64,000 nt of DNA from Ignavibacteriales bacterium (GCA_050260055.1 JBLNBO010000003.1:38629-102628), one strand, 5' to 3'; counted from the stretch's first letter, positions 33,489 to 54,789 are shown. Program-made: numbers and translations. The notes: generated from the sequence alone by a model not told the origin.

Positions 33489-33565
<77 letters not shown>

Positions 33566-33629
33566 ATATTAAATTGCGCAAGAAATATAATAGCATGAAC
33601 ACAAGTATTAGTCAACCTATACATAATAA

Positions 33630-33743: not shown

Positions 33744-33838
33744 GCTGGCAGAGCATTATTAACAAATAATTTTAATATTAATTGCATAGACTACCAAAAT
33801 GCCATATGATTATTTATATTTATTTTTCGGAGATTAAT

Positions 33839-34717: not shown

Positions 34718-34784
34718 TTCATTTTTGCCCGCTCTATTAAAATAATCATAAAAAAGAATAAAAGCGAAAGGTTGAGGAAGACCC

Positions 34785-35585: not shown

Positions 35586-35753
35586 TCTATTGATACCTCC
35601 AAGTTACTATTTCAGCTTTCACCCGTCCTATAAGCAAATTTTTCTGCTTATTCCTTCAACTTCACTCCTTCCAATATTAAATCGAGTATTATAATAAATG
35701 TATAATAGTCTATATTTTGACAGATTTTGTATAAAAAGTCAACCAAGTTATCG

Positions 35754-35826
35754 GGTCCGTCTGTGGGTTCGAATCCCCCTAAACAAGAAAAGACACTTTC
35801 GTGTCTTTTCTTATGGCGGAGAGGGT
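35754..35826. repeat. 73-bp direct repeat copy 1 (T-arm-like fragment + terminator hairpin + last 15 nt of tRNA-Ser)
   Basis: 70/73 identical to 35933-36005 at an offset of 179 bp. Two of the three differences are a compensatory pair in the hairpin stem. Confidence 0.85.
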
Positions 35827-35932
35827 TCGGTCCACTCGTAGGGAGCATCCTCCCTTACGACGGGCCAAAACCGAACCCTGTCACCCTCCTCTGATGTATT
35901 CCTTTGAGGAATACTCTCGGGTAATTAAAACT

Positions 35933-36005
35933 GGTCCATCTGTGGGTTCGAATCCCCCTAAACAAAAAAAGACACTTTCGTGTCTTTTTTTATGGCGGAG
36001 AGGGT
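35933..36005. repeat. 73-bp direct repeat copy 2, overlapping the 3' end of the intact tRNA-Ser
   Basis: See copy 1. It contains GGTCCATCTGTGGGTTCGAATCCCCC, the hairpin AAAAAGACACtttcGTGTCTTTTT and TGGCGGAGAGGGT. Confidence 0.85.
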
Positions 36006-36081
36006 GGGATTCGAACCCACGTGACGTTGCCGCCAAACTGATTTCGAGTCAGCCCCGTTATGACCACTTCGATACCTCTCC
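35993..36081 (-). tRNA. tRNA-Ser (anticodon CGA), long variable arm
   Basis: The reverse complement reads GGAGAGGTATCGAAGTGGTCATAACGGGGCTGACTCGAAATCAGTTTGGCGGCAACGTCACGTGGGTTCGAATCCCACCCTCTCCGCCA. Anticodon loop is CTCGAAA. Confidence 0.9.
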
Positions 36082-36092
36082 ATAATTAATAT

Positions 36093-36539
36093 TTACTTTT
36101 TACGCAGTTCTTTGAAAAACTTCTTTAGAACTCCCGCGCACTCTTCTTCCATTATCCCTGTATAAACTTCAACCTTATGATTAAAACCTTTTTCAAAAAC
36201 ATTGATTACCGAACCTGCCGCCCCTGCCTTTATATCATCCGCTCCATAATAAAGTCTTCTTATCCTTGATTGTATTATTGCCCCAGCACACATAGGACAT
36301 GGCTCAAGTGTAACATATAAATCACAGTCCAAAAGCCTCCATTCTCCAAGCTTCTTTGAAGCCTTCTGAATTGCAAGGATTTCAGCGTGAGCAGTAGTAT
36401 CTTTTCTTGTTTCCCTAAGATTATGCGCACGGGCAATTATTCTATCATTCTGTACAATCACAGCCCCTATCGGCGCCTCACCTTTTTTATATGCTTTCTC
36501 AGCTTCCTGCAAAGCTGCTTTCATATATTTATTATCCAT
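36093..36539 (-). CDS. tadA: tRNA-specific adenosine deaminase TadA
   Basis: The CDA zinc motifs HAE and PCPMCAGA, in a protein of 148 aa. Confidence 0.93.
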   Translation of the reverse strand: MDNKYMKAALQEAEKAYKKGEAPIGAVIVQNDRIIARAHNLRETRKDTTAHAEILAIQKASKKLGEWRLLDCDLYVTLEPCPMCAGAIIQSRIRRLYYGADDIKAGAAGSVINVFEKGFNHKVEVYTGIMEEECAGVLKKFFKELRKK

Positions 36540-36668
36540 AACTCATCCTTAAGGATTTCATTCCTACAGCAAAGTTAATTCTACAACACTACTATTTAAG
36601 CTGTCAAGACCATAGGAAAACTCGCTTATTATAATATAACAAGCGAGTTTTCCTATGCTAATCTTACA

Positions 36669-37457
36669 CTATTGAATTGTATTTGCCATTTCTTCTACTT
36701 CGGTTGCTATGGTTTCATAGTCGCTAACCTTTATATCTTTACTTGATTCATAGCCATACTTTTCAGAAACATTCCTTATTATATCTGTATTGGCATTAGC
36801 AAGAGCATATAGCCGCTTTCTTTGCGGTTCAGTTATTGTTTTTTCTTCTTTCCCTTCCCCCGAAGAAGCATCTCCTTTTGGCTCGCCGTCTGCCTGCTGC
36901 ATTTCCTCATTTGTGTATATCCCGCTAAGATCATTTGGAAATGCCTTTCTTAGCGCTAATGCCTCTGCACATTTTCCAAGCATAAGATATGGCATCTTCT
37001 GCCACATAAATCCGTGGGTTTCCCCAGGGTAATATTCCTTCCATCTTGCAGTTGCCGTAAATGGGCATCTTTGATTGCTTATCATTTTATAAACTGTAAC
37101 TGTAGCTTTGTTTGGCGCAATAGCATCCTCCGTATCATAAACCGGGTCATCAATTCCGGCAAGCTGGCCTGTTCTTTCTGCTATTGCCCTATATCCATCA
37201 ATTCCGGTTTGGACAGTGATTGTGCTTTTAAAACTTCCGTCATTTTGCCTTGTCTTTCTTTTTACAAAATGAATTTGCTTGGTAAGCGGGTCTAATCCAG
37301 TTCTTTGGGCTATAAATAAAAACAGTTTAAGCTCATCATCTGTTGCATCTTTAGCCGAAGACGCCCTGATTAACTCAATCTGCTCCGGGTTGAACCCATA
37401 AGGAACTTCAATATTGCTTATGCTTATATTTTTATTATTCAAAACTTTCTCCTCCAA
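36669..37457 (-). CDS. recT: RecT-family single-strand annealing recombinase (phage-type), orphan
   Basis: GIDGYRAIAERTG, W(K)EY and MPYLMLGKCAEALALRKAFP are typical RecT blocks, followed by an acidic C-terminal tail. Confidence 0.85.
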   Translation of the reverse strand: MEEKVLNNKNISISNIEVPYGFNPEQIELIRASSAKDATDDELKLFLFIAQRTGLDPLTKQIHFVKRKTRQNDGSFKSTITVQTGIDGYRAIAERTGQLAGIDDPVYDTEDAIAPNKATVTVYKMISNQRCPFTATARWKEYYPGETHGFMWQKMPYLMLGKCAEALALRKAFPNDLSGIYTNEEMQQADGEPKGDASSGEGKEEKTITEPQRKRLYALANANTDIIRNVSEKYGYESSKDIKVSDYETIATEVEEMANTIQ

Positions 37458-37791
37458 TTTATTGTTTCAGTATTTACTAACTAATATTAGTTTCTACATA
37501 ATTTTTAAAAAAATGACACATTTAGAGTAAAAATGAAAGTAAATAAATTGAAAAGAGAAGTCTTATTAATAATTTAAATTTTAACGTATTGGAAAGATTA
37601 TCTAAAAGATGTATAATATTTATATATGTCTTTATATTATTTTTATCGTACAGCTCACACTTCACAAAATTTTGTAATGTTTTTCATCTTCATACGATTA
37701 AAGCTAGCTTTATTAAGATGGCCTTTATAGGTTCTTAGAACTTATAGTCGTTATATAAAAAAGATTCCCCAAAAAGAAAGGAGATAATAAA

Positions 37792-38145
37792 ATGTCAGAC
37801 AGTATCAAAATGATTAAGGAAACCAAAAAAGGGCTGAACCTATCTGAAGTTACCATTCCACGAGAATTAATTCCTCTCCAGGAACTTCTTGCAGCCAGAG
37901 CTCATGATGAATGGGTTTTAGAAATGCTCAAGCAGGAATGGAAGTTTGGGCCGGTCCATGATGAAAGTAAAAAGCAAAGCCCTCTTTTGATGAACTATAT
38001 CAGTCTTTCTGATGGAGAAAAACAAATCGCGCGGGATAAAGTTCATGATACCATTGCCGTAATGATAGTATATGGTTATGAAATTACTTCTGCGCCAGTT
38101 ACTTTTCTTGGCCCTCGGAGCTTGTATCCTTATCCGAAGAGCTGA
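37792..38145 (+). CDS. RyR-domain protein
   Basis: 117 aa. LAARAHDEWV....Q.W.FGP..DE..K..PLL..Y..LS..EK..(A)RD resembles the bacterial RyR repeat. Terminator hairpin at about 38151-38178. Confidence 0.6.
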   Translation: MSDSIKMIKETKKGLNLSEVTIPRELIPLQELLAARAHDEWVLEMLKQEWKFGPVHDESKKQSPLLMNYISLSDGEKQIARDKVHDTIAVMIVYGYEITSAPVTFLGPRSLYPYPKS

Positions 38146-38182
38146 AAAACAAAAACACCTTGCATCGCAAGGTGTTTTTGTT

Positions 38183-38258
38183 TGGTGCGCCTGAGACGAC
38201 TCGAACGTCCGGCCTGCGGTTTAGGAAACCGTTGCTCTATCCACTGAGCTACAGGCGC
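38183..38258 (-). tRNA. tRNA-Arg (anticodon CCT)
   Basis: The reverse complement reads GCGCCTGTAGCTCAGTGGATAGAGCAACGGTTTCCTAAACCGCAGGCCGGACGTTCGAGTCGTCTCAGGCGCACCA. Confidence 0.9.
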
Positions 38259-38413
38259 ATAGTTTAGCAAAAATTATTTTACATGGCTAGCCGCATTTTG
38301 TCAATCCTAACGCATTCGGTAAGCCCTTTTAAGTTTTAAGAATTAATTCTTGTCGACATTCTCCCGCTTTTATGGTAATATCTCTTATCATAATAACTTG
38401 ACAGGAGAAGAAA

Positions 38414-39004
38414 ATGCCATTTATTCCAGCATACATCTATAATAATAAGCTGTATCTTAATATAACAAACCTGTGTTCAAATAATTGCTCTTTCTGTATC
38501 AGGAACAGCTCTCAAGGTGTTGGCCATGATCTTGTGCTGGATAGGGAGCCGAGTTCAAGCGAAGTTCTGGAAGCAATTGAGAAGCTTCCGGTCTCTGAAG
38601 AGGTAACCTTTTGCGGCTTCGGCGAGCCCCTATTAAGACCAGAAACACTTATAGAGGTAGCAAAGGAAATAAAAAAGAGATACGGCTCAAAAATTAGAAT
38701 TAATACAAACGGCCTGGCTGAAAAAACCTTAAATAAAAAAATAATCCCTTCTCTTGAAGGAATCATTGATACTATATCTATTAGCCTTAATGCACATGAT
38801 GCAGAATCCTACTTTGAGGTTTGCAAGCCTAAAACCGGAACAGCTTCATATCAAGCAGTTATCGATTTCGCGCGTGAGAGCAAGAAATATATCCCTAATG
38901 TAGCGCTTTCGGTAGTAGATATTCCCGAAATTGATATAGAAAAGTGCAAGCAAATCGCACAAGAACTTGGCATTGAGCTTAGAATACGCCATCTTATTCC
39001 TTAA
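38414..39004 (+). CDS. small radical SAM protein (TatD-associated type)
   Basis: CSNNCSFC cluster motif near the N-terminus, a GFGEPL glycine-rich SAM motif, 196 aa. Confidence 0.75.
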   Translation: MPFIPAYIYNNKLYLNITNLCSNNCSFCIRNSSQGVGHDLVLDREPSSSEVLEAIEKLPVSEEVTFCGFGEPLLRPETLIEVAKEIKKRYGSKIRINTNGLAEKTLNKKIIPSLEGIIDTISISLNAHDAESYFEVCKPKTGTASYQAVIDFARESKKYIPNVALSVVDIPEIDIEKCKQIAQELGIELRIRHLIP

Positions 39005-39464
39005 TTATTCTTCCATTATGCCATTTAAAATGAGCAAGCAGGCTAGTTAAGCCAATTCCAATAAATCCTCCAAAAGTATCTATCAAAACATCTGTTACCT
39101 TAGCCGCTCTTCCCGGCACAAACGCCTGATGAATCTCGTCTGTTACTGCATAAATCAAGCAAATCAGTATGGAATATAGGAATAACTTCTTATCTTTAAT
39201 TCCAGTTGAAGATAAAGCTAAACATAATAACATCCCCAACACTGCATATTCCAAAGTATGCGCAATCTTTCTAATAAAGTAATTCCAACCGTTATTCAAA
39301 AATTCTCCCTTAAAGCCAAAGTTGTTAGCAATTCTGTTTATTTCTTGAATTACAAAAAGGCTTTGTGTATCTGACTGTATTGCAGGCTTACTGGAGAATT
39401 GAAATATTATGCTCATCCAGATTATTGCTAAAAACCAATAAATTATTACTCTTTTTAAGTCCAT
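38994..39464 (-). CDS. VanZ-family membrane protein
   Basis: 156 aa with 4 TM segments. The K..H..EY..LG and TDE.HQ.FVPGR motifs are present. Confidence 0.75.
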   Translation of the reverse strand: MDLKRVIIYWFLAIIWMSIIFQFSSKPAIQSDTQSLFVIQEINRIANNFGFKGEFLNNGWNYFIRKIAHTLEYAVLGMLLCLALSSTGIKDKKLFLYSILICLIYAVTDEIHQAFVPGRAAKVTDVLIDTFGGFIGIGLTSLLAHFKWHNGRIIKE

Positions 39465-39489
39465 TAAAAACTCTCCGTCTTTTTTAAGC

Positions 39490-40308
39490 TTAATTCTTTT
39501 TAAACAGCTTTTTGAAGAAACTATCTTTCACTTCTGTCTTTGATTTTTCGCCTTCTTGAGTATTAAGAGCTATTTCAGTATTAGCAAGATACGCAACCCT
39601 CTTTATTAGGTTCTGTATGGATGAATTGTATTTATTTTTTTGCTTTACAAATTCATTCGTCTTTTTTTGATTATAATAATCTCTCATGCTTGAAGAATAA
39701 ACAACACTTATGTGTTCTATCTGGTACATCTTTTTAATTTCGCCGGAATCCGGAAAAACATTATCTTCAAACATATTTATAACATTTATTTCTTTTACAT
39801 CCTTATGCTGATTGTAGGATTTGTACCATTCTAGTATGTAAGGATTCTGCGTCATAACATTTAGAAACACATCACAGTTAGAGTAAATAAGCCTGCTCAA
39901 TTCGCTCTGCGTTCCTGCTGTAGTATCCACAATTACAATATCAAAGGTTTTACGCGCAACCTCTATTATTTTTAAAACCTCTTCAGTATTCTTTTTAAGA
40001 TAATCTGAATTGTCTATACGGCTAGGATTTACAAGTCTTAAATTAGGCTTTAAAACTTCTGTATTTTCAATTAGAAGTTCTGATGTAAGCTCTCTGTTTC
40101 GCACTATAGAAATCAAATCATCAATACAATTTGAAGTTTTTCGGTCAACTAAGAACTCCATTTCTCCAAATAAATAATTAAAATCAAATATAAGTATGCT
40201 CAATTCCGTGTAATTAGCGAGAGTATATCCGATATTGTAAACAAGAGATGTTATTCCTTGTCCATGTTTGACACTGCCGACTCCAATAAACTTTCCCGTT
40301 TTCTCCAT
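39490..40308 (-). CDS. ParA/MinD-like P-loop protein with a degenerate Walker A
   Basis: The N-terminus GVGSVKHGQGITS aligns to the deviant Walker A xKGGxGK(T/S), but the GK Lys is replaced (G-I-T). A Walker B-like FDIVIVDT is present. Confidence 0.45.
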   Translation of the reverse strand: MEKTGKFIGVGSVKHGQGITSLVYNIGYTLANYTELSILIFDFNYLFGEMEFLVDRKTSNCIDDLISIVRNRELTSELLIENTEVLKPNLRLVNPSRIDNSDYLKKNTEEVLKIIEVARKTFDIVIVDTTAGTQSELSRLIYSNCDVFLNVMTQNPYILEWYKSYNQHKDVKEINVINMFEDNVFPDSGEIKKMYQIEHISVVYSSSMRDYYNQKKTNEFVKQKNKYNSSIQNLIKRVAYLANTEIALNTQEGEKSKTEVKDSFFKKLFKKN

Positions 40309-40436
40309 CTTGTACCTCCAGATTTTTTATACAAACTAATTATACCAAAAAATCAGATGTAAAGAACCTTTTTTTCAAATTCCCAAGGCTTTACTTATGG
40401 CTCTGCTTGTTGTATAATATGGTTTCAGTAAGCATA

Positions 40437-40513
40437 TGCGCCCATAGCTCAGCTGGATAGAGTGTTTGGCTACGAACCAAAAGGTCGGGGGTTCGAATCC
40501 CTCTGGGCGTGCC
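40437..40513 (+). tRNA. tRNA-Arg (anticodon ACG)
   Basis: GCGCCCATAGCTCAGCTGGATAGAGTGTTTGGCTACGAACCAAAAGGTCGGGGGTTCGAATCCCTCTGGGCGTGCCA. A hairpin+T-run terminator follows at about 40520-40562. Confidence 0.92.
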
Positions 40514-40573
40514 AAAGCAAAAAGGAAAGTACATTCTACAAATGATGTACTTTCCTTTTTCGTTTTAAGTCAA

Positions 40574-41461: not shown

Positions 41462-41587
41462 AAGCGTTAATGGAACGTCCTAAACGGACGTTTTTAGCTT
41501 CGCGTAAGGAGCCGGGACCCGTTCGCGGGTGGCGACGTAGGCAAATGCGAGCTTGCCGAAGCATTTGATAATCCCTCTGACCTGCCA

Positions 41588-41627
41588 TAAAAAACTGCTG
41601 ACATTATATAATGTCAGCAGTTTTTTT
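41588..41627. terminator. bidirectional intrinsic terminator
   Basis: An A-run, then the stem CTGCTGACAT / ATGTCAGCAG, then a T-run. Confidence 0.7.
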
Positions 41628-41647: not shown

Positions 41648-41899
41648 TTAAAAATTGACCCACCAGTTTATAAATCCGAATCTATACCTTCTTTTTTTCA
41701 ATCTTTTTATCTCCATACTTAATCCTATAATTCTTCCCATTTGAACCCTTGGACTATAAACCAAGCCTTCTTTTTCTCTTTCTTGTTTCTTTTCTCTTAG
41801 CTCATCTACCATGCCTTCTAATTCTTCAATCCTCCGAATCACGTTCTTGTCTAATGCCCACTCGTTGATTTTTCTCATTAATTCCGATATTTTTCCCAT
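41648..41899 (-). CDS. hypothetical small coiled-coil protein
   Basis: 83-aa ORF with GGAGG upstream. Confidence 0.45.
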   Translation of the reverse strand: MGKISELMRKINEWALDKNVIRRIEELEGMVDELREKKQEREKEGLVYSPRVQMGRIIGLSMEIKRLKKRRYRFGFINWWVNF

Positions 41900-41985
41900 T
41901 ATTATTCTACCTCCTTCATTAAATAACGTCTTTTCTTTATCAAATCCTTTATTGTTGTTAACCCTAAATGGTTCCTTTTGTTTAA

Positions 41986-42408
41986 CTACAAATGTGTTTT
42001 CCGGAAATAATCCATAAATTCAGGCAGGTCCATTTCTTGTCCGTTTCCACAATCAACACATTGACAAAGTCCGCACTCATCACAATTGCCGAGAATAGCA
42101 TCTTCATCGAAAGTAAAACATTTGTCTTGAATTTCCTCATAAAGTTTTTTCATATGGTTGAAAACTTCTTCTTTTAAATTGCCTTGTGTCGTTTGAGGCT
42201 TAAATTCTTGCCCGGTATAAAACTTACTTTCGAATCCAGCCAATAAATCGGCGAAATTGATTTTTCCACTTATTCCACACTGGAGTGTAATAAAATCAAT
42301 TAGTTCTTGGTCTTTAAGATTTGCAGAATTGAGTAATGTTTTGATTTCCATAGCGTGGGTAATAATAAGATTTTTCTTTGCAATCTGCGCTGCCGATACC
42401 ATTTCCAT
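41986..42408 (-). CDS. hypothetical protein with a C-terminal Cys cluster
   Basis: Start set at MEMVSAAQ (AAAGGAGG upstream). C-terminal CDECGLCQCVDCG. Confidence 0.5.
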   Translation of the reverse strand: MEMVSAAQIAKKNLIITHAMEIKTLLNSANLKDQELIDFITLQCGISGKINFADLLAGFESKFYTGQEFKPQTTQGNLKEEVFNHMKKLYEEIQDKCFTFDEDAILGNCDECGLCQCVDCGNGQEMDLPEFMDYFRKTHL

Positions 42409-42588
42409 TTTGTTTCCTCCTTTAAAATTTACAACCCTCACCTTTATTAAGGTTTAATCAAGCTTCCGACCTGTCCGCAATATAACATTTTGAACAATTA
42501 GGCATATTTTTTCATAAAATATAGATACTTATAGTTTACCAAGAGACAAGTTCTCTGTCAATTTAGAAAACCATAAATTACTTTTTAA

Positions 42589-42954
42589 TTAAGCCGAACA
42601 TAGCGACTTTAAAGCCTCCGCTTCAGTACTTTTAAATATTATTTTGTTGCCCTTATTAGATTCATAAATCAAAGCCTTTAAGCTCTTACTATTGTATTTT
42701 TCGAAATCGCCAATAATTGCAAGAGCCATTCCATAATTCATGTATTTCTGCATTATCTCGCCAGCAATACATGTTTTTAATTCAAAAAAGTCTTCCGTAA
42801 TGTTTTTCTTATTGATGACTACTTTATCACAATCATAGTTATGCCTAACAGTTGCCATCAAATCTAAAGAGTCTTGCACATTGTTGATGATGATATCTTC
42901 ACTTGATACAACTGCGATATTTTGACTTTCCATTTTTATTACTTTGATTTCCAT
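42589..42954 (-). CDS. DUF4180 domain protein
   Basis: 121 aa. The core F(F)ELKT.IAGEI.QKY.NY....AI.GDF..Y.SKSL...IYESN.G matches DUF4180 as I remember it. Confidence 0.7.
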   Translation of the reverse strand: MEIKVIKMESQNIAVVSSEDIIINNVQDSLDLMATVRHNYDCDKVVINKKNITEDFFELKTCIAGEIMQKYMNYGMALAIIGDFEKYNSKSLKALIYESNKGNKIIFKSTEAEALKSLCSA

Positions 42955-42984
42955 GCTTTTCCTCCTTGCACTTTTATGATTATC

Positions 42985-43050
42985 TGCATTCTCGTTGATT
43001 GGGCTGCGGTGCAGTCCTTGTGAGAGTGCATTGTTATATGTAGTAGCGAC
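42985..43050. repeat. GC-rich intergenic element, short copy (E)
   Basis: It shares TTGATTGGGCTGCGG and GAGAGTGCATTGTTATATG..GCGAC with elements A and B. An internal inverted repeat TGCATTCTC / GAGAGTGCA is present. Confidence 0.7.
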
Positions 43051-43051
43051 A

Positions 43052-43780
43052 TTAAATATTCCTTGTAAATTTGCATGCTGGGTATCCAGAACAACCTAAG
43101 AACTTACCAAATTTACCTTTTTTCATTGATAAGGCACGGCCACATTTTGGGCAAACTTCGTCATTCTGAACTTCTTCCCCCTTACTTCGTTTTTCTTTTA
43201 CTACGTTTTCAACAATTTCCTTACCCTTTGATTTGCTCATAATTTCTATAAGTTTTTTTCTATCCCAGAGCTCAATTCCGTTTGAATTTGCTAAATCATA
43301 TGCGTTTTCTGTAAATGAACTATTGGTAACTACCATTCCTTTATTAGCATCATAGTACTTAATAGCTCCTATTACTTGTTGAATAGCATCAACACCAACA
43401 TTCATCTTCCATCTTTTTGCCTGAACAACAACTTTTCTGCCGGCCTTCTTCAAAACTAAATCTGCTCCATAATCATCAGTTTTTGGAGTTAAATGTCCAC
43501 TATAACCTAAATTCTTAAAATGTTCTAATAAGTAGTCTTCAAATACCTCTCCCCGCATATTATCAATTTCATCAATCCCACTTTCAAAAAGCTTCTTCCT
43601 TTTATTCTTTTTATATTTACTAATTGCTAGGTATAATAGTCCTAAACTTCCGAGAAAGGTTAACGCTCCTAACCAAATATTAGCTGTCTTCCCCCAAACA
43701 AATATGGATAAAATTATTGAGGCACTATAAAAAGTGTCAACAATATCCTCAAATACTGTGGTTTTTTTCCCTCTGCTCAC
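43052..43780 (-). CDS. membrane-anchored Mrr-type restriction endonuclease-fold protein with a C-terminal topoisomerase-type zinc ribbon
   Basis: Two N-terminal TM segments, the Mrr_cat blocks FE.....F...GY........DYGADL and VVVQAKRW...VG, and a C-terminal CPKCG....GCSGYPACKF. GTG start after GGGAGG. Confidence 0.8.
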   Translation of the reverse strand: MSRGKKTTVFEDIVDTFYSASIILSIFVWGKTANIWLGALTFLGSLGLLYLAISKYKKNKRKKLFESGIDEIDNMRGEVFEDYLLEHFKNLGYSGHLTPKTDDYGADLVLKKAGRKVVVQAKRWKMNVGVDAIQQVIGAIKYYDANKGMVVTNSSFTENAYDLANSNGIELWDRKKLIEIMSKSKGKEIVENVVKEKRSKGEEVQNDEVCPKCGRALSMKKGKFGKFLGCSGYPACKFTRNI

Positions 43781-43820
43781 AAAGATTCCTCCCTAAAAAA
43801 TATGTCGCTATTGCATATAG

Positions 43821-44040
43821 CATCCCACACTCTCGGCGTCACAGAGTTGGACTTGCAAAGCCCTTCTTCCTCGGTGGCGGCTTGTCCGCCCAGCGATTGG
43901 GATGCGGCACAAGCTTCCCGTTGTTGATCGCTCGGTATTGGGGCTGCTCCTCAAATAATGCCAGCAAACCTATACGAGAGTGAATTGTTAAGTGATGTCG
44001 GACGTCTAATAATTCAGAAGCAACCATGGATGGGTGCTCC
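43821..44040. repeat. GC-rich intergenic element, long copy (A)
   Basis: About 55-60% GC against an AT-rich background. It aligns by eye with 44806-44998 (block CACTCTC.GC.TCACAGAG.TGGAC..GCAA.GCC.TTCT.C.T.GG.GGCGGCTTGTCC.CCCAGCGATTGGG) and contains several short hairpins. Confidence 0.75.
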
Positions 44041-44052
44041 TAATAATTAGTA

Positions 44053-44727
44053 TTAGTTATCGTTTATACAATCAATAAATTTGACACCCAAAGCTGTAAG
44101 TTTATGTATTATAGTTGACGGAGTGACACCAAAAACCATCCCATGTACAATTTTCATTTCTACAAAATTAAACTGTAGTAACTTATTCGCATTCCCTTCC
44201 AATTCTTTATGTTCTGAAGTATTGATACAATAACCATTGACTAAGTTAGTATTTAAGAAATTTAATAGCTTAATATCATCATTTGTAAGAAAATCTACAT
44301 ATTTTGAAAACATTGAAAATTCATCCCAAGAAATCTTACTCTCAACAAATCCTTTAATTAACTTTGAAATAATATTAGTCCTATTCAATTCTTCAAGCCT
44401 ATCGAGAATAATTATTATTCTTTCAGTAACCTTATCTTGGAATTTCGGATCCCGCATTTTGTATTTAAATTCATTATATTTTATAGTATCGATACTCTCA
44501 TTTTTAAACTCACATATAAATTTTATTAGTTTTTTAGTAAAAAATCGTTCTTTAATATTTAAACCTGTCTTGCAGACTGCAACTATTGATTTTATTACAG
44601 GTATTTCTTTTGCTACTCCTTCATTAAATAATGAGTCTAGCCCAACTTCAGTTATATCAATTGCAACATCTTTTGTTCCACTAGTTAATTCCTCTGCTAA
44701 TCCTTTTTGTAAATTTTCAATCTTCAT
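44053..44727 (-). CDS. hypothetical helical protein (Abi-like flavour, unverified)
   Basis: 224 aa from ATG 44727 (the track ORF uses TTG 44736). No catalytic motif recognised. Confidence 0.5.
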   Translation of the reverse strand: MKIENLQKGLAEELTSGTKDVAIDITEVGLDSLFNEGVAKEIPVIKSIVAVCKTGLNIKERFFTKKLIKFICEFKNESIDTIKYNEFKYKMRDPKFQDKVTERIIIILDRLEELNRTNIISKLIKGFVESKISWDEFSMFSKYVDFLTNDDIKLLNFLNTNLVNGYCINTSEHKELEGNANKLLQFNFVEMKIVHGMVFGVTPSTIIHKLTALGVKFIDCINDN

Positions 44728-44805
44728 AATTCTCAACCCCTTAAAATATATCCAATTTTTAGAGCAATCGCATATATACGCGTCCCTTTTACGACCAAAT
44801 TCATC

Positions 44806-44998
44806 TAACGTCCTGCACTCTCAGCATCACAGAGCTGGACCAGCAAGGCCATTCTCCTTGGCGGCGGCTTGTCCTCCCAGCGATTGGGGTGTGGAGCGGA
44901 GCCTTCTTCCTTGCTTTTCTCACCGCGACTTTACGGTAGCGCATTGTTATAAGACGTGTGCCGGGCTCCAAAGCTTAGCGGTCACGGATGGCCGCTTC
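44806..44998. repeat. GC-rich intergenic element, long copy (B), abutting the stop codon of the 483-aa gene
   Basis: Direct repeat of element A. Its terminal 58 nt are repeated in inverted orientation at 46493-46556. Confidence 0.75.
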
Positions 44999-46450
44999 TT
45001 AATCTTTACACCTTACTTTTTTCAGCTTTTCTTTAGTTGCCTCTTCATCATTCACAGATATCTCAGGAAAATTCACAATCTCTCCAGAGGTATTTTTAAT
45101 CGCTTTTCTACATTCCTTTGAGAATTTAGAATCTTTTGTATCTTTTATATATTTAGCAACATTGAACAAATCAATTGTTCTGATTAGTGCTATATTTGAT
45201 CGTTTTGCCCCACTAAAGCACTTTTCAGTAAAAAACTCAGTTCTTTCCTCTGGTGACAAGAGCCTGTAGGCATTACCAAAAAGTACCCCTTTAGCATACT
45301 CATTAACTTCATCGCGCGCAAAATCTTCTTGAATATTTCTTTCAAGTTGGCTTAATTTTTCTATGTTTATAGCTTTATTATCCCTTCCCTCAGCTTCTCC
45401 AATGAATCGCCCTTCATCACCTACAAAAACCACATCAAATTCAGATTCATCATTTTGAAATCCTTCTGCTTTAAAACCCAATATTTCGAGTGCATGAATA
45501 ATTGATAGTTCAAGAGGTTTTCCCTGTTCATACAATAATCCCCGAAGTAAACCTTCCTTTTCAATCTCTACTTCGATATTAGTTTTTTGTTCCTTAAGCT
45601 TTTCAATTTTGTCATTAATAATAGATATCTTTTCAGTTAGCTTATTTTCAATACCAAGCCTAAATTTTCTGTCTTTTGCCCAGGCTGGTAATGGTGATAC
45701 TGCTGCTCCTTTTTTTATTGCCTTATCAATTTCAATAAGGCAAGATATATACTTTTTGCCAAAAGCTTTTCCTTCCTTCGTCCACTCCCACTCATCTTCA
45801 TCTTCATCAATATATTTAATGAATTTATTCTCGTCGTATTTAATGGGTGGAATAATTAAAATGGCCCCTTTTGAATTTGTAAATTTCGCTGCAACAGTTT
45901 TATTTCCTGATTTGGTAGTTAATAAACTGCTATTAAAATCTCCTTCAAGATAAATTTCAAACGGAGAATATTTCGAGAACCCACCCCAATATGTGGATAG
46001 AACACCAATATCTTTTGTAGCCCTAATTTCTTCTCCAGATACCGGAATAACTTTTCCAATTTTAACAGGAAATACATCATAACTATTCAAAGGTCGAACA
46101 ATATTTGTGTATACTGTTGATTTCCCCGTTCCAGAAGATTGTTTTTCTCCAGTGTAAACACAAACTTCCTCAGGTTTACTTAAAAATATGAATATAGTCT
46201 TCCCAGAATCAAAAGCCTCCTTCAACTCTCTTTGCCAGTGCAAAATAACTTCAGAACTTCTAAAAGAATATGTCTGATCTAACACAGGTTTTCCATTATA
46301 CCTTTCATTATAATGATAATTATAGGGAATACCCGGATTAAATATTATTATGTCCGCATCTAATAATGAACGATCAGATTCTAATGGAATGTATTCATCA
46401 TCATCACCTGGCAAAGAATAATTTACGCAAAAAATCTTTTTTTCTGACAC
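44999..46450 (-). CDS. hypothetical 483-aa protein: unknown N-domain, central coiled coil, C-terminal nuclease-like block
   Basis: Coiled coil KLTEKISIINDKIEKLKEQKTNIEVEIEKE. It is followed by GKPLELSIIHALEILGF......SEFDVVF....GRFIGEAEGRDNK, which resembles a PD-(D/E)xK-type core. That assignment is an inference. Confidence 0.55.
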   Translation of the reverse strand: MSEKKIFCVNYSLPGDDDEYIPLESDRSLLDADIIIFNPGIPYNYHYNERYNGKPVLDQTYSFRSSEVILHWQRELKEAFDSGKTIFIFLSKPEEVCVYTGEKQSSGTGKSTVYTNIVRPLNSYDVFPVKIGKVIPVSGEEIRATKDIGVLSTYWGGFSKYSPFEIYLEGDFNSSLLTTKSGNKTVAAKFTNSKGAILIIPPIKYDENKFIKYIDEDEDEWEWTKEGKAFGKKYISCLIEIDKAIKKGAAVSPLPAWAKDRKFRLGIENKLTEKISIINDKIEKLKEQKTNIEVEIEKEGLLRGLLYEQGKPLELSIIHALEILGFKAEGFQNDESEFDVVFVGDEGRFIGEAEGRDNKAINIEKLSQLERNIQEDFARDEVNEYAKGVLFGNAYRLLSPEERTEFFTEKCFSGAKRSNIALIRTIDLFNVAKYIKDTKDSKFSKECRKAIKNTSGEIVNFPEISVNDEEATKEKLKKVRCKD

Positions 46451-46492
46451 AAATCATACTCCTCTCCAAAATGTTTTTTGCTACCCCAATAA

Positions 46493-46556
46493 ATGCCATC
46501 CGCATGCCACGAGCATGGCTGCGAACACAAATATCCGGCACATGTCCTTATAGCTA
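46493..46556. repeat. inverted partial copy (C) of the end of element B
   Basis: GCCATCCG...CCGGCACATGTCCTTATAGC matches the reverse complement of 44941-44996 (GCCATCCG...CCGGCACACGTCTTATAAC). Confidence 0.65.
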
Positions 46557-46707
46557 TTAAATCATCAAACTATGTCGGGTTAAGTTCTTGTACAGCCTGT
46601 TAACCGACACATAATCTTTCTTTGTTAATTTCCTAAACTATACCAAAATTCACTATATTTTGCAATCCGTAAAAGTTGTCTTTATGCCTTAGTAAGAGGC
46701 AAATCAC

Positions 46708-46747
46708 TCTTCTGCAAAAACTGCTTTTTGGTGTCGCTCTAAAACTT
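46708..46747. repeat. 40-nt direct repeat, copy 1 (flanks the 271-aa gene)
   Basis: TCTTCTGCAAAAACTGCTT is a 19-nt exact core, with about 34/40 identity overall to 47861-47900. Confidence 0.7.
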
Positions 46748-46805
46748 CTCCTAAAAGAAAAACCGTCCTTGAAGGACGGTTTTAAATTAATTTTCATAAG
46801 ATTGG

Positions 46806-47621
46806 CTAAGCAATCCCCAGCTCTCTATGCATTCTTTCTATAAGCAGCTTACTTAAATAAGCATACCGTTGGGGAGTCAGATATTCCTCTATCTTCCCAA
46901 GAGCTTCTGCGAAACTCTTCCCCTGGACTTCGGCGACATAGCCGTATTCCGAATCCGTGAGCCTGAAAAAGACTCGGCCGTTTTCCATTCTCACCTTGAA
47001 CTTTTTGCCAGATAATACCCAGGCATCAAGGTAGCTTTCTGCCGCGGATGTTCCAGTAAGGTATACACATTCATACGGAAGCCCGCCTGCGAGATAATCG
47101 TTATTAGCTTCTACCAAAGCAGGACGAGCGCTGTAGGACTCGCCGTAACCGACCAGCGTTCCCCGGGAATTCTCAATTCGAATAACACGGAGGCCTCCTC
47201 CAGAGCGAAAAGCCCTGATGGTATTGCCATCTCGAAGGCTATCATTCAAGCCTTTGAATCCTCCCGCTTTCTTTCTCAGGGGAATAATCGACAGCAGATA
47301 CGATACGGTTTCAGAAGCAGAGAATTTTGTAATAATAGCTAAATTCCCTCCGGAGAAACTGATAATATCGCCTTGTGATAAGTCCACTGATAAATCCCCG
47401 CCGAAGCTGATTTGGATTAGGGCCTTTTCTTGAGATTCAGGCCGTAAGATTACTTCTCCGTTGTAATAAGTTTCGCAATCGCACTCTTTGTTCCACCAGT
47501 TTGCTTTGGTTTTGGCGTTAACTTTGCTGCGAATCTCGACTTCTCTACCAATAACCTGGTTTAGCAAATATCCTACCTGAGGCGCATTTTCTGGGGTCAA
47601 GATAACCTTTCTTAATTTCAT
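46806..47621 (-). CDS. hypothetical 271-aa protein, GC-rich relative to its neighbours
   Basis: Start set at MKLRKVIL (AGGAGGG upstream). Terminator hairpin AAAACCGTCCttgaaGGACGGTTTT at 46758-46786. Confidence 0.55.
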   Translation of the reverse strand: MKLRKVILTPENAPQVGYLLNQVIGREVEIRSKVNAKTKANWWNKECDCETYYNGEVILRPESQEKALIQISFGGDLSVDLSQGDIISFSGGNLAIITKFSASETVSYLLSIIPLRKKAGGFKGLNDSLRDGNTIRAFRSGGGLRVIRIENSRGTLVGYGESYSARPALVEANNDYLAGGLPYECVYLTGTSAAESYLDAWVLSGKKFKVRMENGRVFFRLTDSEYGYVAEVQGKSFAEALGKIEEYLTPQRYAYLSKLLIERMHRELGIA

Positions 47622-47860
47622 CCAAGAAACCCTCCTTTTTTTATCCTTTTTTATGAATATCCTGTTTGAGCAATAAGCACACAAAAGAAATTTTATATCT
47701 GACAATACTCAGCATCACTTCCTGCATGCACTAATATGAGCTGTTTGCTCTGGCAGCATATTTCATAAATTAAAAAAGAAAACTATTTATATGATACTAC
47801 GGCTGGAATAAGATTACAATAACTATTTCTATAGCCCAAAAAGCCCGGAAAGTCTAATCT

Positions 47861-47900
47861 TCTTCTGCAAAAACTGCTTATTGATATTGCTTTAAAGCTT
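47861..47900. repeat. 40-nt direct repeat, copy 2
   Basis: See 46708-46747. Spacing between the copies is 1153 bp. Confidence 0.7.
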
Positions 47901-48046
47901 TATCCCAATTCGAGCAATCCAGAAATATATTTAATTTATCCTGTTAAAAAAACCTTCCTAATGATAAAATTTTTTTTAGAAAAGCTGCAACCTTTTTGTA
48001 AGTCAACTGTTTTACTTTATGAAAGGGCTAACGGGGGGGTGAAAAA

Positions 48047-48607
48047 TTGGATGAGAGAAAGCTTATAAATGATGCGCGGGCTGGAGACAAGTCTGCTTTT
48101 GAAGAACTGATAAAAAGATATTATTTCCCTCTGCAGAAGTTTTTTATAAACCACGACTTGAACCTTTCTACCGCACAGGATTTAACACACGATACAATAA
48201 TAAAGATAATTGAAAATATAGAAAACTTCATACCTTTTAGGGAATCCAGTTTTTCATGCTGGGTATTCAGAATTGCATACAACAATATGATGAATTATTT
48301 CAGCAATCATTCAAACAAAATGATGCCCGAAGATATTGAAGAATACCAGGAAATCAAATCTCCCCTTAAAAGCGTAGAAGAAGAAATTATAGAAAATGAA
48401 AACCATTATTTAATAAATGAAGGCCTTAATTTATTAACAAAAGAAGATAAGACAATAATAGTGCTTCACTACATAAATGAACTAAGTTACAAAGAAATTG
48501 GAGAAATATTAAGTATAAACGAAAAAAAGGTTAAATGGAAACTTCATAATGCCCTTGAACGTTTAAGAAAGCTCATGAAAAAGGAGGCTTTAATCAATGA
48601 AATGTGA
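48047..48607 (+). CDS. ECF-type sigma-70 family RNA polymerase sigma factor
   Basis: Region 2 (F..L...Y...L..F) and a region 4 helix-turn-helix (LSYKEIGEILSINEKKVKWKLHNALERLR). TTG start after GGGGGGTG. Confidence 0.88.
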   Translation: MDERKLINDARAGDKSAFEELIKRYYFPLQKFFINHDLNLSTAQDLTHDTIIKIIENIENFIPFRESSFSCWVFRIAYNNMMNYFSNHSNKMMPEDIEEYQEIKSPLKSVEEEIIENENHYLINEGLNLLTKEDKTIIVLHYINELSYKEIGEILSINEKKVKWKLHNALERLRKLMKKEALINEM

Positions 48608-49046
48608 TGAATTTAAACAAAAAGTTATAGAATTCCTTTCTGAAGATGCGGTTTTGCCTAATGACCTTAAGTCTCATGTAAATGAATGTAAAACATGTAA
48701 AGAATTTTTGGTAGACTCAAAATTATTGCTTAAATCCTTTAAGGATAAAAGCTGCGATGTAAGTAATGATATGCAAGAAGTAGAAACCTTTATTACATCA
48801 ATTAATCCTTTATTAAATAAGAAATCTCTTCAAATAAAGGAAACAAGGCAAACCAGGAAAGAAAGTATTGCTTTAGCTTTGATAACAATCTTCTTCATCG
48901 GATTAATCCTCTTTGCACTTTATTCATACTTAATAAATGGCAGCTTATTTTTGATAGCCCTTTTAGCAGTATACACACTTTTCTCATCAATAATATCTTT
49001 AATTTTTTTACCAACAATAAGAAAGTATAGGAGGAATGTTTTATGA
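48597..49046 (+). CDS. anti-sigma factor (zf-HC2) with C-terminal TM segments
   Basis: It overlaps the sigma gene by 11 nt. N-terminal H-x3-C-x2-C (HVNECKTCKEF) and two TM segments. Confidence 0.7.
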   Translation: MKCDEFKQKVIEFLSEDAVLPNDLKSHVNECKTCKEFLVDSKLLLKSFKDKSCDVSNDMQEVETFITSINPLLNKKSLQIKETRQTRKESIALALITIFFIGLILFALYSYLINGSLFLIALLAVYTLFSSIISLIFLPTIRKYRRNVL

Positions 49047-50059
49047 TTAAAAAGATAGGTTCATTCTTTGGAAAAGCCTCTAAAATAATAAGTATAATTT
49101 TTTTGGTAATTGCTCTGGTTGGGCTTGCAGGAATGCTGAAAATGAATGCTCTGATTAATGAAGAAATGCCCCAAGAAAACAGTCAGGTTTATAAGACCCT
49201 GATTAAATATCTTGATAATGCAGAAACAAACGGATTTGAAAAGATTAAGCCAATTCCTCTTTTAAGTCAACTGGATTCCGTAGGAATAGTAATTACCGAT
49301 CAGGCAGGCAATATTGTACATAAAACATTTCCGGATAAACCTGACTCTTTGTTTTCAGGAATGACTAAGTTTAATGTCTTTTCAGATTTAGGGGGATTTA
49401 CCTATATTCTTGATCAGAATGATAATTTAAAATGCTTATTCTTTGGGAAATTCGGAAAAAGCAACATACGGAATCAGCAGAAATTATATGAACTTGGGAA
49501 CCCTGAATGGAATAACTTTGTTCTTTCTTCTCCAAATAATATTGGAATGAAGCTAACACGTTTAAATAAAGCCTATGTTAATTCGGACGGCAGTTTTTCC
49601 CTCTCCCGCGATGAAAAAATGAAAAATCCAGTTGCTTATCCATGCGAAACTATAATAGTGAAGTCAAGCGCAGGAAAGTTCAATCTCTACTTTTTCCGGA
49701 TGCCGCATTTTGGCTTGTTTGAGATGATAAACGAAGGTTATTTTGCAGAATTTATTATTGACCCATTTTCATTCTTCCAAGAAAATGAATTTAGAGAAAT
49801 TGTTCTTTCAGACCATGTCAGCATCGTAACAAAACACCAGGTGTATAGAGATATCTTTTTCATAGCTATGATAATTGCTTTACTTATATCCTTAATCTTT
49901 GTTGTAGTATGGGTATTCATAGATGCAAAAACAAGAAGTCTCCCCAGGCTTCCATGGGCATTACTGGTTCTTCTTACAAATCTAATCGGCATAATAATCT
50001 ATCTGATCATAAGACATCCGGGAAGCTCTTCGGCCATTCCTGAAACAAAAAATGTTTAA
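49043..50059 (+). CDS. membrane protein with a C-terminal PLD-nuclease-N-like (PLDc_N) TM hairpin
   Basis: ATGA overlap with the anti-sigma gene. C-terminal WVFIDAKTRSLPRLPWALLVLLTNLIGIIIYLIIR. Confidence 0.55.
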   Translation: MIKKIGSFFGKASKIISIIFLVIALVGLAGMLKMNALINEEMPQENSQVYKTLIKYLDNAETNGFEKIKPIPLLSQLDSVGIVITDQAGNIVHKTFPDKPDSLFSGMTKFNVFSDLGGFTYILDQNDNLKCLFFGKFGKSNIRNQQKLYELGNPEWNNFVLSSPNNIGMKLTRLNKAYVNSDGSFSLSRDEKMKNPVAYPCETIIVKSSAGKFNLYFFRMPHFGLFEMINEGYFAEFIIDPFSFFQENEFREIVLSDHVSIVTKHQVYRDIFFIAMIIALLISLIFVVVWVFIDAKTRSLPRLPWALLVLLTNLIGIIIYLIIRHPGSSSAIPETKNV

Positions 50060-50110
50060 GTATATCTTTAAAGAAAAAGCTTCGCTGACGCGAAGCTTTT
50101 TCTTTAAGCT

Positions 50111-50770
50111 TTATTCTTCTTCCGGCAAGAGCAGTTCCATTTGTTTAATAAATTCAGCGGCCTCGATGAATTTTTCATCCAACTGGGTGCTTCCGGTGAG
50201 TTCTTTGTAATGGCGGCGAATTATTACGACTGTCTGCATAATAAGCTTTATTGAATTGAGCAGCCCTTTTTTGGACTCAACAACATAATACTCTATGCCG
50301 CATTCGTCAAGGATTCTTCTGAAGCCCTGGCCCTGCTCTTCAGCAACGTCCCTGTCCCCCTGGGTACGGCCTTCCATCTCAAAGTCAAGGTCTCCGCGGT
50401 TTACAAAGATATTAACATTGTTGTACTGCTTGCTATATTCAAGAATAAGGTTCTTGTATGCTTCTGCATAACTTGCCTTCGGATCAAGATAGAACAAGCT
50501 TACCAGCGGTGAAGCCTCACTAACAACAATTTCAACCTCTCCATCCAGATTTTCAAGTATCTTGGTATGTTTTCCAAAGATATAAATCTGCCGCTTTAGG
50601 GTCCAATACCGTTTTTCCCAGACCAGGCTTTTGGGAAACTCGATTGCAGCTTCAACAACCATTCCGAAGACTTTAAGTATCCACATCAATCCGTACAGCA
50701 GAGTACTTTTGCCAGTTCCGGCCCCTCCAAACAGATTTACAACCAACGTCTTTTTGCCCTCATTTTCCAT
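50111..50770 (-). CDS. P-loop NTPase (AAA_28 / kinase-like), GC-rich
   Basis: Walker A FGGAGTGKST. Start set at MENEGKK (GGAG 9 nt upstream). A bidirectional terminator lies at about 50069-50098. Confidence 0.6.
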   Translation of the reverse strand: MENEGKKTLVVNLFGGAGTGKSTLLYGLMWILKVFGMVVEAAIEFPKSLVWEKRYWTLKRQIYIFGKHTKILENLDGEVEIVVSEASPLVSLFYLDPKASYAEAYKNLILEYSKQYNNVNIFVNRGDLDFEMEGRTQGDRDVAEEQGQGFRRILDECGIEYYVVESKKGLLNSIKLIMQTVVIIRRHYKELTGSTQLDEKFIEAAEFIKQMELLLPEEE

Positions 50771-51070
50771 TCCAACCATCTCCTTTTTTACTGTCCTTTG
50801 CTTTCTTCGCAACCTTTCTCCCATTTCGGCAGAGCCTTTTTGATAAACCTTAGCAACAAGTGTTTCAGCTAATATAATTTAATATTGGTATATATCTTTA
50901 AAATAATATCACACTCTCTTTTAGCGGTCAATGTATAACAGCTATTATCTTCTTTAATTTTCCATTTTCTTCATTGATTTATTACTGTGTATTTTTTGCG
51001 TAAAAATATGTAGAAATACTGGAGTAGACTATTTCTCTGTGGTATAATACGTAAGTTGTTTAAATATTAA

Positions 51071-52684
<1,614 letters not shown>

Positions 52685-52696
52685 GGAGAACAAACT

Positions 52697-52942
52697 ATGG
52701 AGATAAAAAGCGGTAAATATAAGCATTACAAGGGCGGACTATATCAAGTAATCGGAGTTGCAAAACATAGTGAAACCCTAGAAGATTATGTCGTTTATAT
52801 GTCTCTTCATGAATGCCGTACCGGAGGCATAGGCTCTTTTTGGATAAGACCAAGATCAATGTTTGAGGAAGTAATCAATCACGAAGGAAAAGACGTTTTT
52901 AGATTTGAATATATTGGAGAAAATAATATTCAAGACTCTTAA
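52697..52942 (+). CDS. DUF1653 domain protein
   Basis: 81 aa. YKHYKGGLYQV.G.A.HSET.E..VVY pattern. Confidence 0.75.
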   Translation: MEIKSGKYKHYKGGLYQVIGVAKHSETLEDYVVYMSLHECRTGGIGSFWIRPRSMFEEVINHEGKDVFRFEYIGENNIQDS

Positions 52943-53053
52943 ATAAATAATATCTTTTATACCCATAGGGCGCCAACCCACTAAGTCTATTATTGTATAT
53001 TTTAAATCACTCTTGGAGAAACTTTTAAGAATTATTATCCAGGAGTGATTTTT

Positions 53054-53611
53054 TTGAATTATGAATTAGTTGATGAATTCAGGCTTAACTGGGTTATTAC
53101 AGTAATTTTGAATATTGCCGCAGGTATAGTATTTGCAGCCGGCTTTTACGGTTTTTTGTATTTATATTTTACATTTTCAACAGATATTCTCGGTGAGAAA
53201 CTGCTAGCAAATTCTAATCTGTGGATAGCATATGCGGCAGTGCTTTTTCAGGCAGTGCTTCATGAATACAGTCATGGAATCGGTTATAGGCTAAGCGGCG
53301 GCAAGGTAAAATACGGAATCAAATGGTTGTGCCCTTATTGTATGGAAAAGTCGGGCCTGTATTATCCAACAAACAATTTTATTTTAACCCTCATACTTCC
53401 ATTGATAACCGGAACAATTGCGGCAGTATTGGCTTTCATTGCTTTCCCCCAATATCTTTACTATATCGTCATCTGTGTATTAACAAACATCTCCGGTGCG
53501 GCCGGAGATATTATGATGCTGTTTTTTATAATATTAAAAAGGAACAGAGGCCAGTATATTAAAGATGAGCCTTACGGGTTCAGTATGTATAGAAGGGTTA
53601 TCCTTGAATAA
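53054..53611 (+). CDS. DUF3267-type putative membrane zincin peptidase
   Basis: TM segments and an HEYSH (HExxH) motif. Start is uncertain: TTG 53054 lies 8 nt after AGGAG, while the track uses GTG 53045. Confidence 0.6.
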   Translation: MNYELVDEFRLNWVITVILNIAAGIVFAAGFYGFLYLYFTFSTDILGEKLLANSNLWIAYAAVLFQAVLHEYSHGIGYRLSGGKVKYGIKWLCPYCMEKSGLYYPTNNFILTLILPLITGTIAAVLAFIAFPQYLYYIVICVLTNISGAAGDIMMLFFIILKRNRGQYIKDEPYGFSMYRRVILE

Positions 53612-53644
53612 CCTGCGAATTTTACCTAACAAAAAAGAAGGGTT

Positions 53645-54217: not shown

Positions 54218-54234
54218 AGCTAATTCTTTAAAGC

Positions 54235-54762: not shown

Positions 54763-54789
54763 ATCCTAAGCACCTTTCTTTCCTGTTGT

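Follow-up and report, generated by a model that had tools for sequence, protein, structure and literature searches.

A probable integron-type gene-cassette array with divergent attC-like sites in an Ignavibacteriales bacterium

Background

In a complete integron, the gene intI, which encodes a tyrosine recombinase with an IntI-specific insertion, adjoins the attI site and the first gene cassette. Exchange occurs at the G|TT of the R' box of an attC site; hence, the bases past the G are those of the following cassette, to whose own R'' box, rather than to the site around them, they are complementary. Two or three extrahelical bases on the R''–L'' arm are a hallmark of attC sites. For canonical sites, lengths of 57–141 bp have been reported, and purines are enriched on their bottom strand, whose fold is more stable than that of the top strand (PMC5371416). 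Clusters of at least two attC sites lacking integron-integrase (CALIN; Cury 2016; Neron 2022; PMC9024848) are common and thought to be degraded integrons, and earlier reports of integrons include Chlorobi and Ignavibacteriae (PMC9024848). Here, a stretch of 64,000 nt from an Ignavibacteriales metagenome-assembled genome (MAG; GCA_050260055.1, JBLNBO010000003.1:38629–102628; henceforth the window) was analyzed, in which the spacers between four minus-strand genes carry GC-rich repeated elements, designated A, B, and E. We read this region as an integron-type gene-cassette array on the minus strand, with the GC-rich spacers as attC-like recombination sites, and assign a probability of roughly 0.8 to this reading. 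The system is of a known kind, and its presence in an Ignavibacteriales lineage is unsurprising.

Repeated elements with the layout of attC sites

All coordinates refer to the whole window, and the array genes are read on its minus strand. The spacers are located at 44737–44998 (B), 43781–44052 (A), and 42955–43051 (E). In a blastn comparison of the spacers against the window, A (43814–43907) and B (44802–44894) matched over 94 bp at 81% identity (E = 2e-19), E gave only short matches, and no further copies were detected in the rest of the 64 kb. The initial annotation, made from the sequence alone, had described A, B, and E as repeats sharing several motifs. The repetition was real, and the terminal block (A/C)ATTGTTAWWR was present in all three elements; GATTGGG likewise recurred in each (E, 42997–43003; A, 43895–43901; B, 44882–44888), whereas TGCGG was not found in B, which has TGTGG instead. 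The GC content given there (55–60% in a genome of about 30%) was overstated, as the fractions were 0.44–0.52 for the spacers, 0.45–0.55 for the elements proper, 0.36 for the window, and 0.27–0.34 for the cassette genes. Calling E an internally deleted version holds as a description only, E being a minimal site with a short terminal hairpin.

A wider check for copies, proposed in the same annotation, was performed by two exact-pattern scans with conserved stretches and yielded about 20 further elements of 122–182 bp on seven unrelated public contigs, i.e., one MAG contig (L006, “Deltaproteobacteria bacterium MAG225,” paddy-soil project PRJNA951521) and six Joint Genome Institute (JGI) metagenome contigs (L007–L012). 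On these contigs, the elements separate AT-rich genes that are unrelated between contigs. Such recurrence lies far outside what chance would give. Site A was about 80% identical over 176–189 bp to sites on L006 and L012, having a 35-nt stretch in common with L006, and site B was 77–82% identical over about 150 bp to sites on L007, L008, L010, and L012. The sites are modular: their 5' half is “A-type” or “B-type,” their 3' half is long or short, and these halves recombine among themselves. Element A had no blastn match among plasmids, and two further pattern scans, of viral contigs, gave no matches. The related contigs are all short (1.3–4.8 kb) and break at repeats. Short-read Logan contigs break inside A (43878–43905) and B (44880–44905), at the conserved motif CCCAATCGC; this is expected because many sites have k-mers in common, and similar attC sites are a known cause of such short-read assembly breaks (PMC9024848).

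In gene-sense orientation, every element (A, B, E, and about 20 sites on L006–L012) has the layout CATC-RYWTAAC-AAT-GCACTCTCG-(variable part with CCCAATCGC and covarying hairpins)-CGAGAGTGC-GGGAC-GTTAyry-GAmAT. The terminal R boxes, R'' RYWTAAC and R' GTTAyry, are inverted repeats in about 20 sites, and L'' and L' (GCACTCTCG/CGAGAGTGC) are 85% paired over nine pairs, with AAT facing GGGAC as the intervening spacer. In the modular middle of the sites, CCCAATCGC (GCGATTGGG on the plus strand) is nearly invariant in the window and in nearly all sites on L006–L012, and since its pairing partner is not conserved, it appears to be a sequence-specific rather than a structural signal. The internal hairpin GGCGG-ACAA-GCCGCC covaries among sites (GGTGG/CCACC, AGTG/CACT).

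The three window sites are all on the minus strand. Site B (44803–44952, 150 bp), downstream of a gene for a 483-aa protein, consists of a canonical R'' TTATAAC (44946–44952), a mutated L'' GCGCTACCG (44934–44942), L' TGAGAGTGC (44815–44823), and R' GTTAGAT (44803–44809), which conforms to the canonical GTTRRRY. In site A (43815–43993, 179 bp), downstream of a gene for a 224/227-aa protein, R'' ACTTAAC (43987–43993) is kept, L'' is TCACTCTCG (43975–43983), L' is CGAGAGTGT (43827–43835), and in R' GCTATAT (43815–43821) the GTT is mutated to GCT. Site E (42978–43039, 62 bp) begins 12 nt past the stop codon of a gene for an Mrr-like protein and has a kept R'' ATATAAC (43033–43039), L'' GCACTCTC (43022–43029), L' GAGAATGC (42986–42993), and a degenerate R' GATAATC (42978–42984).

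Pairing of the two ends of each cassette

Sixteen complete cassettes were compared, and their 5' end (G|TTAyry and the following bases) is the inverted complement of their own 3' end. The match takes in the variable positions of the R box, e.g., GTTAGAT/GTTAGAT and GTTATGT/GTTATGT, and the variable R' bases together with the next ~13 nt track the cassette's own 3' end and not the adjoining site. Past the R box, a constant 2-nt mismatch is followed by a cassette-specific block of 8–9 bp, and pairing ends abruptly after the eighth extension pair. Beyond the R box, cognate ends matched at 10.3 of 19 positions, compared to 6.1 ± 1.8 for non-cognate ends. Covariation, a check that the initial annotation had asked for, was counted on 15 “circular-form” cassette constructs and compared to slid partners and to 500 shuffles. 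On these constructs, 84.5% of cells were paired (27–39% with partners slid), and changes on both sides were found in 17 pairs overall and in 15 of the 19 outer-stem pairs. The covariation score was 0.41 versus 0.14 in the shuffles, none of which reached it, and any observed pairing measure was reached by at most one of the 500.

This own-end pairing is the circular-permutation signature of integron cassettes, and the exchange point falls between the constant GGGAC-GTTA and the variable R' bases. The pairing supports two earlier suggestions, namely that each gene forms a cassette with its downstream element and, with the confidence given above for the array as a whole, that the elements are recombination sites for a trans-acting recombinase. 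It also explains the “inverted partial copies” of the terminal block noted previously. Such copies are real at 42466–42486 and 46535–46554, but they are the 5' ends of cassettes and not degraded copies of the spacer elements; the one at 46535–46554 is the 5' end of the cassette with the 483-aa gene and is cognate to the flank of the R'' of B.

On the minus strand, cassette 1 (483-aa gene, 44809–46553) starts after the G at 46554 with CTATAAGGACATGTGCCGG, the inverted complement of the sequence preceding its own R'' in site B. Cassette 2 (224/227-aa gene, 43821–44808) shows cognate pairing of its 5' and 3' ends and was also recovered as a separate Logan contig of 1028 bp (L005; four samples), both ends of which lie inside sites B and A. 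The ends of cassette 3 (Mrr-type gene, 42984–43820) pair at 18 of 26 positions. Cassette 4 (DUF4180 gene, 42486–42983), delimited by reading the sequence and by Pfam, has a decayed attC of its own and terminates at an R'-plus-extension block, GTTATATTGCGGACAGGTCGG (42466–42486), apparently the 5' end of another, degraded cassette.

According to the mechanism we propose, each cassette would comprise a promoterless gene followed by an attC-like site, one strand of which would fold, most likely the plus (“bottom”) strand of the window. R'' would pair with R' and L'' with L', the two stems flanking a short unpaired spacer and leading to a branched, GC-rich terminal structure. A tyrosine recombinase of the integron type, presumably an IntI-type enzyme encoded elsewhere, would cut beside the invariant G|TT of R', and cassettes would leave as circles and re-enter at another site. 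GC skew on the plus strand is negative throughout and most genes are on the minus strand, which would place the proposed bottom strand on the leading-strand template, the orientation seen in 25 of 30 sedentary integrons (PMC5371416).

Folding and departures from canonical attC sites

In minimum-free-energy DNA folds, A is closed on both strands by the L stem (CACTCTCG/CGAGAGTG), and E is closed by an imperfect equivalent (TGCATTCTC/GAGAGTGCA), in line with the long-range closing stem annotated for these two elements; in B, this stem was not formed because its L'' is mutated. Consensus folds gave a branched terminal structure. The hairpin fold of E had z-scores of −3.3 on the plus (bottom) strand and −1.6 on the minus strand. 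In addition, 12 GC-rich hairpins with a TCCR loop were found in the family, all on the gene-sense strand. The one next to B, AGCGGCCA-TCCG-TGACCGCT (44977–44996, minus strand), lies between the stop codon and R'' and is the sole hairpin in the 64 kb that passes a cut-off of 60% GC in the stem; its counterpart at site A is at 44014–44043 on the same strand. In the relatives, such hairpins are located on L006 (4521–4546), L010 (377–408, 600–615, 1251–1282, and 1471–1486), L008 (1083–1098), and L012 (887–908, 1980–1999, and 2904–2923). One type occurs between stop codon and R'', often followed by TCTGAA, and the other in the cassette leader 20–40 nt past R', often followed by GGAT. The two types are not mutually complementary and thus do not extend the outer stem any further; they might define RNA ends or bind protein.

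Several observations weigh against an assignment of the family to attC. Whole-element fold energies of A and B were no better than those of shuffled sequences (z from −0.7 to +1.0). Bulged extrahelical bases, which are present in the verified aadA1 and VCR sites, were not found, as the A-type L stem is a perfect 9-bp helix and the B-type L stem has a 2 × 2 internal mismatch. A slight excess of purines was found on the gene-sense strand (GC skew +0.07, AT skew +0.16), and the mean bottom-minus-top difference in folding energy was +0.3 kcal/mol, i.e., there was no strand asymmetry; only E folded better on the bottom strand, by 2.8 kcal/mol. Most sites exceed the reported lengths (relatives 122–182 bp, B 150 bp, and A 179 bp, compared to 62 bp for E), length being a descriptive and not a defining property. 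A covariance model of our own, built from 33 Vibrio VCRs, missed even the positive controls at default filters and was rerun with filters off; it then recovered both class 1 attCs at their exact coordinates (26.6 and 20.4 bits) and matched neither a window element (best 6.3 bits) nor any of the about 20 relatives on L006–L012, a result which, the model being narrower than that of IntegronFinder, is not to be taken as the verdict of that program. Finally, no tyrosine recombinase was detected by phmmer with verified IntI1 among open reading frames (ORFs) of at least 60 aa in the window and the related contigs.

Extrahelical bases are dispensable for the recombination of some attCs (PMC5027507), and the departures therefore do not exclude IntI-mediated recombination. 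Judged by its sequence features (outer stem, bulge-free L stem, CCCAATCGC, and hairpins), the family is a divergent variant of attC. A smaller covariance model of 48 positions (R box, L box, and an artificial GAAA loop) gave spurious partial matches, as terminal structures of 100 nt were too long for it, and was discarded.

Integrase and state of the array

Pfam likewise identified no tyrosine recombinase among the neighboring genes. On the related contigs, a missing intI says little, since they are short and broken at repeats, and a search for IntI1 homologues was uninformative on this MAG, the best 120 matches all being class-1-like. With three sites within 2 kb and no integrase within 64 kb, the array is a CALIN if the sites count as attC. 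The elements, which the initial annotation could not place in any known class, thus have the layout of integron attC sites, and their array matches a described category.

Of the four R' cores in the window, three carry a change at the T right after the putative cut (46554–46552, 43821–43819, and 42984–42982; GCT, GCT, and GAT, respectively). GTT is kept in the R' of 17 of 18 distinct sites of the relatives, and the matching change on the R'' side, AGC for AAC, was found in two of them (L008, 1653; L011, 3559). The altered T could reflect selection for immobilized cassettes or a mutational footprint of recombination. Further signs of decay are the mutated L'' of B and the DUF4180 cassette without a site of its own. 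As three of four R' sites are altered beside the expected cut, the window cassettes are probably immobilized or decaying.

Alternative explanations

Beyond a divergent attC, the integron recombination sites of this family could form a structural class of their own, perhaps served by a divergent clade of integrases, a reading that we regard as conceivable but improbable. Strand choice and integrase binding would then proceed via features other than bulged extrahelical bases. Candidate features are a cassette-specific outer stem of ~20 bp that would be complete only in the excised circle, its fixed 2-nt internal mismatch, a single-stranded, conserved CCCAATCGC, and the flanking TCCR-loop hairpins of the gene-sense strand. 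It is unlikely that an integron-like cassette system is served here by a different recombinase instead of a classical IntI, its site architecture (long outer stem, no extrahelical bases, conserved CCCAATCGC motif) having evolved differently. The missing extrahelical bases, a strand bias that is absent or reversed, the failure on this family of a model that generalizes from VCR to class 1 attCs, and the fact that no IntI was seen near any of the eight loci would all fit such a system, but the R''/R' consensus, the AAC-AA and GGG(A)C-GTTA arms, and the exchange point closely match integron sites, and neither short contigs of 1.3–4.8 kb without intI nor a lack of bases that some attCs can lose and still recombine (PMC5027507) tell strongly for a different enzyme. 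The opposite orientation, with the plus strand as top, was rejected, as the arms no longer resemble verified attCs (AAC-AA..., ...GGGC-GTTA) and all genes become inverted relative to the sites. As for Xer/dif-type modules, no CATAA-6-TTATG core was visible, although no formal search was made.

A role as RNA, i.e., as structured 3'-untranslated or intercistronic modules (terminators, processing sites, or stabilizers) or as small non-coding RNA, had been the other suggestion of the initial annotation, and we consider it very unlikely. TCCR-loop hairpins restricted to the gene-sense strand, just past stop codons and just past R', and the covarying internal hairpin GGCGG-ACAA-GCCGCC speak for it. 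The strongest covariation, on the other hand, links sequences a whole gene apart and therefore fits the permutation of a DNA cassette and not a local RNA fold; A and B have no excess of folding energy, and the single terminator-like hairpin is on the wrong strand for the array genes. Rfam returned no match in the elements at the gathering score and, up to E = 10, no family apart from one chance-level match over E (mir-33, 16.6 bits compared to a gathering score of 50, E = 7.9). To our knowledge, Rfam has no attC model, so this null result says nothing against attC. The accessory hairpins could have a role in RNA alongside the DNA role of the sites. Even less likely are small transposon-like units or miniature inverted-repeat transposable elements (MITEs) with terminal inverted repeats of ~20 bp, inserted into a repeated GC-rich scaffold. 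An imperfect, unit-specific inverted repeat of ~20 bp does flank each gene, but no transposase was found in the window array, the target site is not duplicated (the two sides are flanked by different constant arms, GGGAC of L' and AATGCAC of L''), the integron core and inverse-core sites make up the innermost 7 nt of every repeat, and shorter extended cognate repeats (9–14 nt) also occur in Vibrio integron cassettes. A coding origin of the A/B similarity was rejected as well, in agreement with the non-coding conservation noted at the outset, because whole modules are exchanged between family members, and aligning the members requires gaps of lengths not divisible by three.

Cassette genes and genomic neighborhood

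The array genes have the same orientation and short 5' leaders with ribosome-binding sites, and most have no assigned function. The gene of cassette 1 (483 aa, 44999–46450, minus strand) had no match in Pfam, NCBIfam, or PADLOC, and no function was assigned to the called gene of cassette 2 (224/227 aa, 44053–44736, minus strand). Cassette 3 encodes an Mrr-type restriction endonuclease with a C-terminal zinc ribbon (43052–43780, minus strand; Pfam Mrr_cat 9e-34, Zn_ribbon_Top1 7e-14), which PADLOC matched to its type IV restriction enzyme and ZorD nuclease models, and cassette 4 encodes a DUF4180 protein (42589–42954, minus strand; Pfam).

The gene upstream of cassette 1 (46806–47705), without a match in Pfam, NCBIfam, or PADLOC, ends in a strong terminator at 46759–46783. 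Downstream of this terminator and upstream of cassette 1, a promoter-like site on the minus strand (46637–46665; TTGCAA, 17 nt, TATAGT, extended TG) could be the promoter of the array, as a candidate only; promoter-like sites in the array region were not more numerous than expected from shuffled sequences. Just upstream of the 5' end of cassette 1, at 46565–46606, an imperfect inverted repeat (stem TGTCGG(G)TTAA, 16-nt loop) contains GTTAAGT and GTTAAC and could be a remnant site or belong to an attI-like junction.

Beyond the array, two more small ORFs follow on the minus strand (41986–42441 and 41648–41899). Between them, at 41921–41963, an AT-rich stretch of the form GGTTAAC ... GAC-GTTATTT, the ends of which are not cognate, could perhaps be a mini attC in an advanced state of decay. 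Past these ORFs, the region is closed by a strong bidirectional terminator hairpin (41587–41627). Further along, at 33489–40514, four tRNA genes (Arg-TCT, Ser-CGA, Arg-CCT, and Arg-ACG) are interspersed with a RecT-family gene (36669–37457), a dCMP/tRNA-adenosine-type deaminase (36093–36539), a RyR-domain protein, and a radical SAM protein. The array starts ~2 kb past tRNA-Arg(ACG) (40438–40514), and the stretch at 40.5–46.7 kb could therefore be an island inserted at a tRNA. A near-identical strain was present in a second sample (L001/L002 compared to window 44880–55994; 20 mismatches in 11 kb). The Lon protease of this “Ignavibacteriales” MAG is >90% identical to that of a “Deltaproteobacteria bacterium” MAG, so at least one of the two taxonomic labels is doubtful.

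Discussion and comparison with known integrons

A repeat formerly regarded as unclassifiable becomes interpretable as a mobile-gene platform in a poorly studied soil lineage, and the cassette logic of integrons is recognizable in the sequence alone, from the way in which the two ends of a cassette pair. If the departures described above are functional and not decay, attC detectors may under-count integron cassettes in non-proteobacterial metagenomes, and integron integrases would select strands by wider rules than Vibrio and class 1 sites have suggested. If the family were a distinct structural class, such arrays could escape current attC models.

For comparison with verified systems, two control sites were used: the aadA1 attC matched 1,962 plasmids at ≥99% identity, and the VCR matched a replicon of Vibrio sp. 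HDW18 (NZ_CP049914.1) at 97.6%. Class 1 cassettes (intI1-dfrA1-aadA1 on pSE08-00436-1, L013) share with the window the G|TT boundary and an R' that is cognate to the cassette's own R''; AAC-AA follows R'' in their sites, and the arms of the window family resemble those of the aadA1 and dfrA1 sites. Class 1 sites differ in being 60–95 bp long with bulged bases and a simple terminal loop, and their integron has intI1 and attI1 adjoining. Complementarity past the R box is absent in dfrA1 and about 5 bp in aadA1.

The array also resembles sedentary chromosomal integrons such as the Vibrio VCR arrays, in which promoterless, co-oriented genes are each followed by a site of >120 bp from one lineage-specific family, with RYYYAAC/GTTRRRY ends, an unpaired spacer, an L stem, and a branched terminal structure. 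The VCR arms read TAAC-AAAC-GCCT.../...AGGC-GGGC-GTTA, and GGGC-GTTA of the VCR is very similar to GGGAC-GTTA of the window family. The 5' end of VCR cassettes also complements their own R'' and a few bases more: across 34 cassettes of Vibrio sp. HDW18, the R boxes matched at 6.9 of 7 positions for cognate and 5.5 of 7 for non-cognate ends, and cognate complementarity usually extended over 9–14 nt. An extended outer stem is therefore not unique to the window family, in which it is only longer (~20 nt) and has a fixed 2-nt mismatch. Unlike VCRs, the family has no bulged extrahelical bases, its L-box sequence is unrelated, and its sites reach 182 bp and lack the bottom-strand purine bias; the window array also differs from VCR arrays in comprising only three to four cassettes with no integrase nearby. 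With at least two clustered attC-type sites without intI, three of four R' and one L'' mutated, and one site decayed, the window array resembles a CALIN, an assignment that hinges on accepting its sites as attC.

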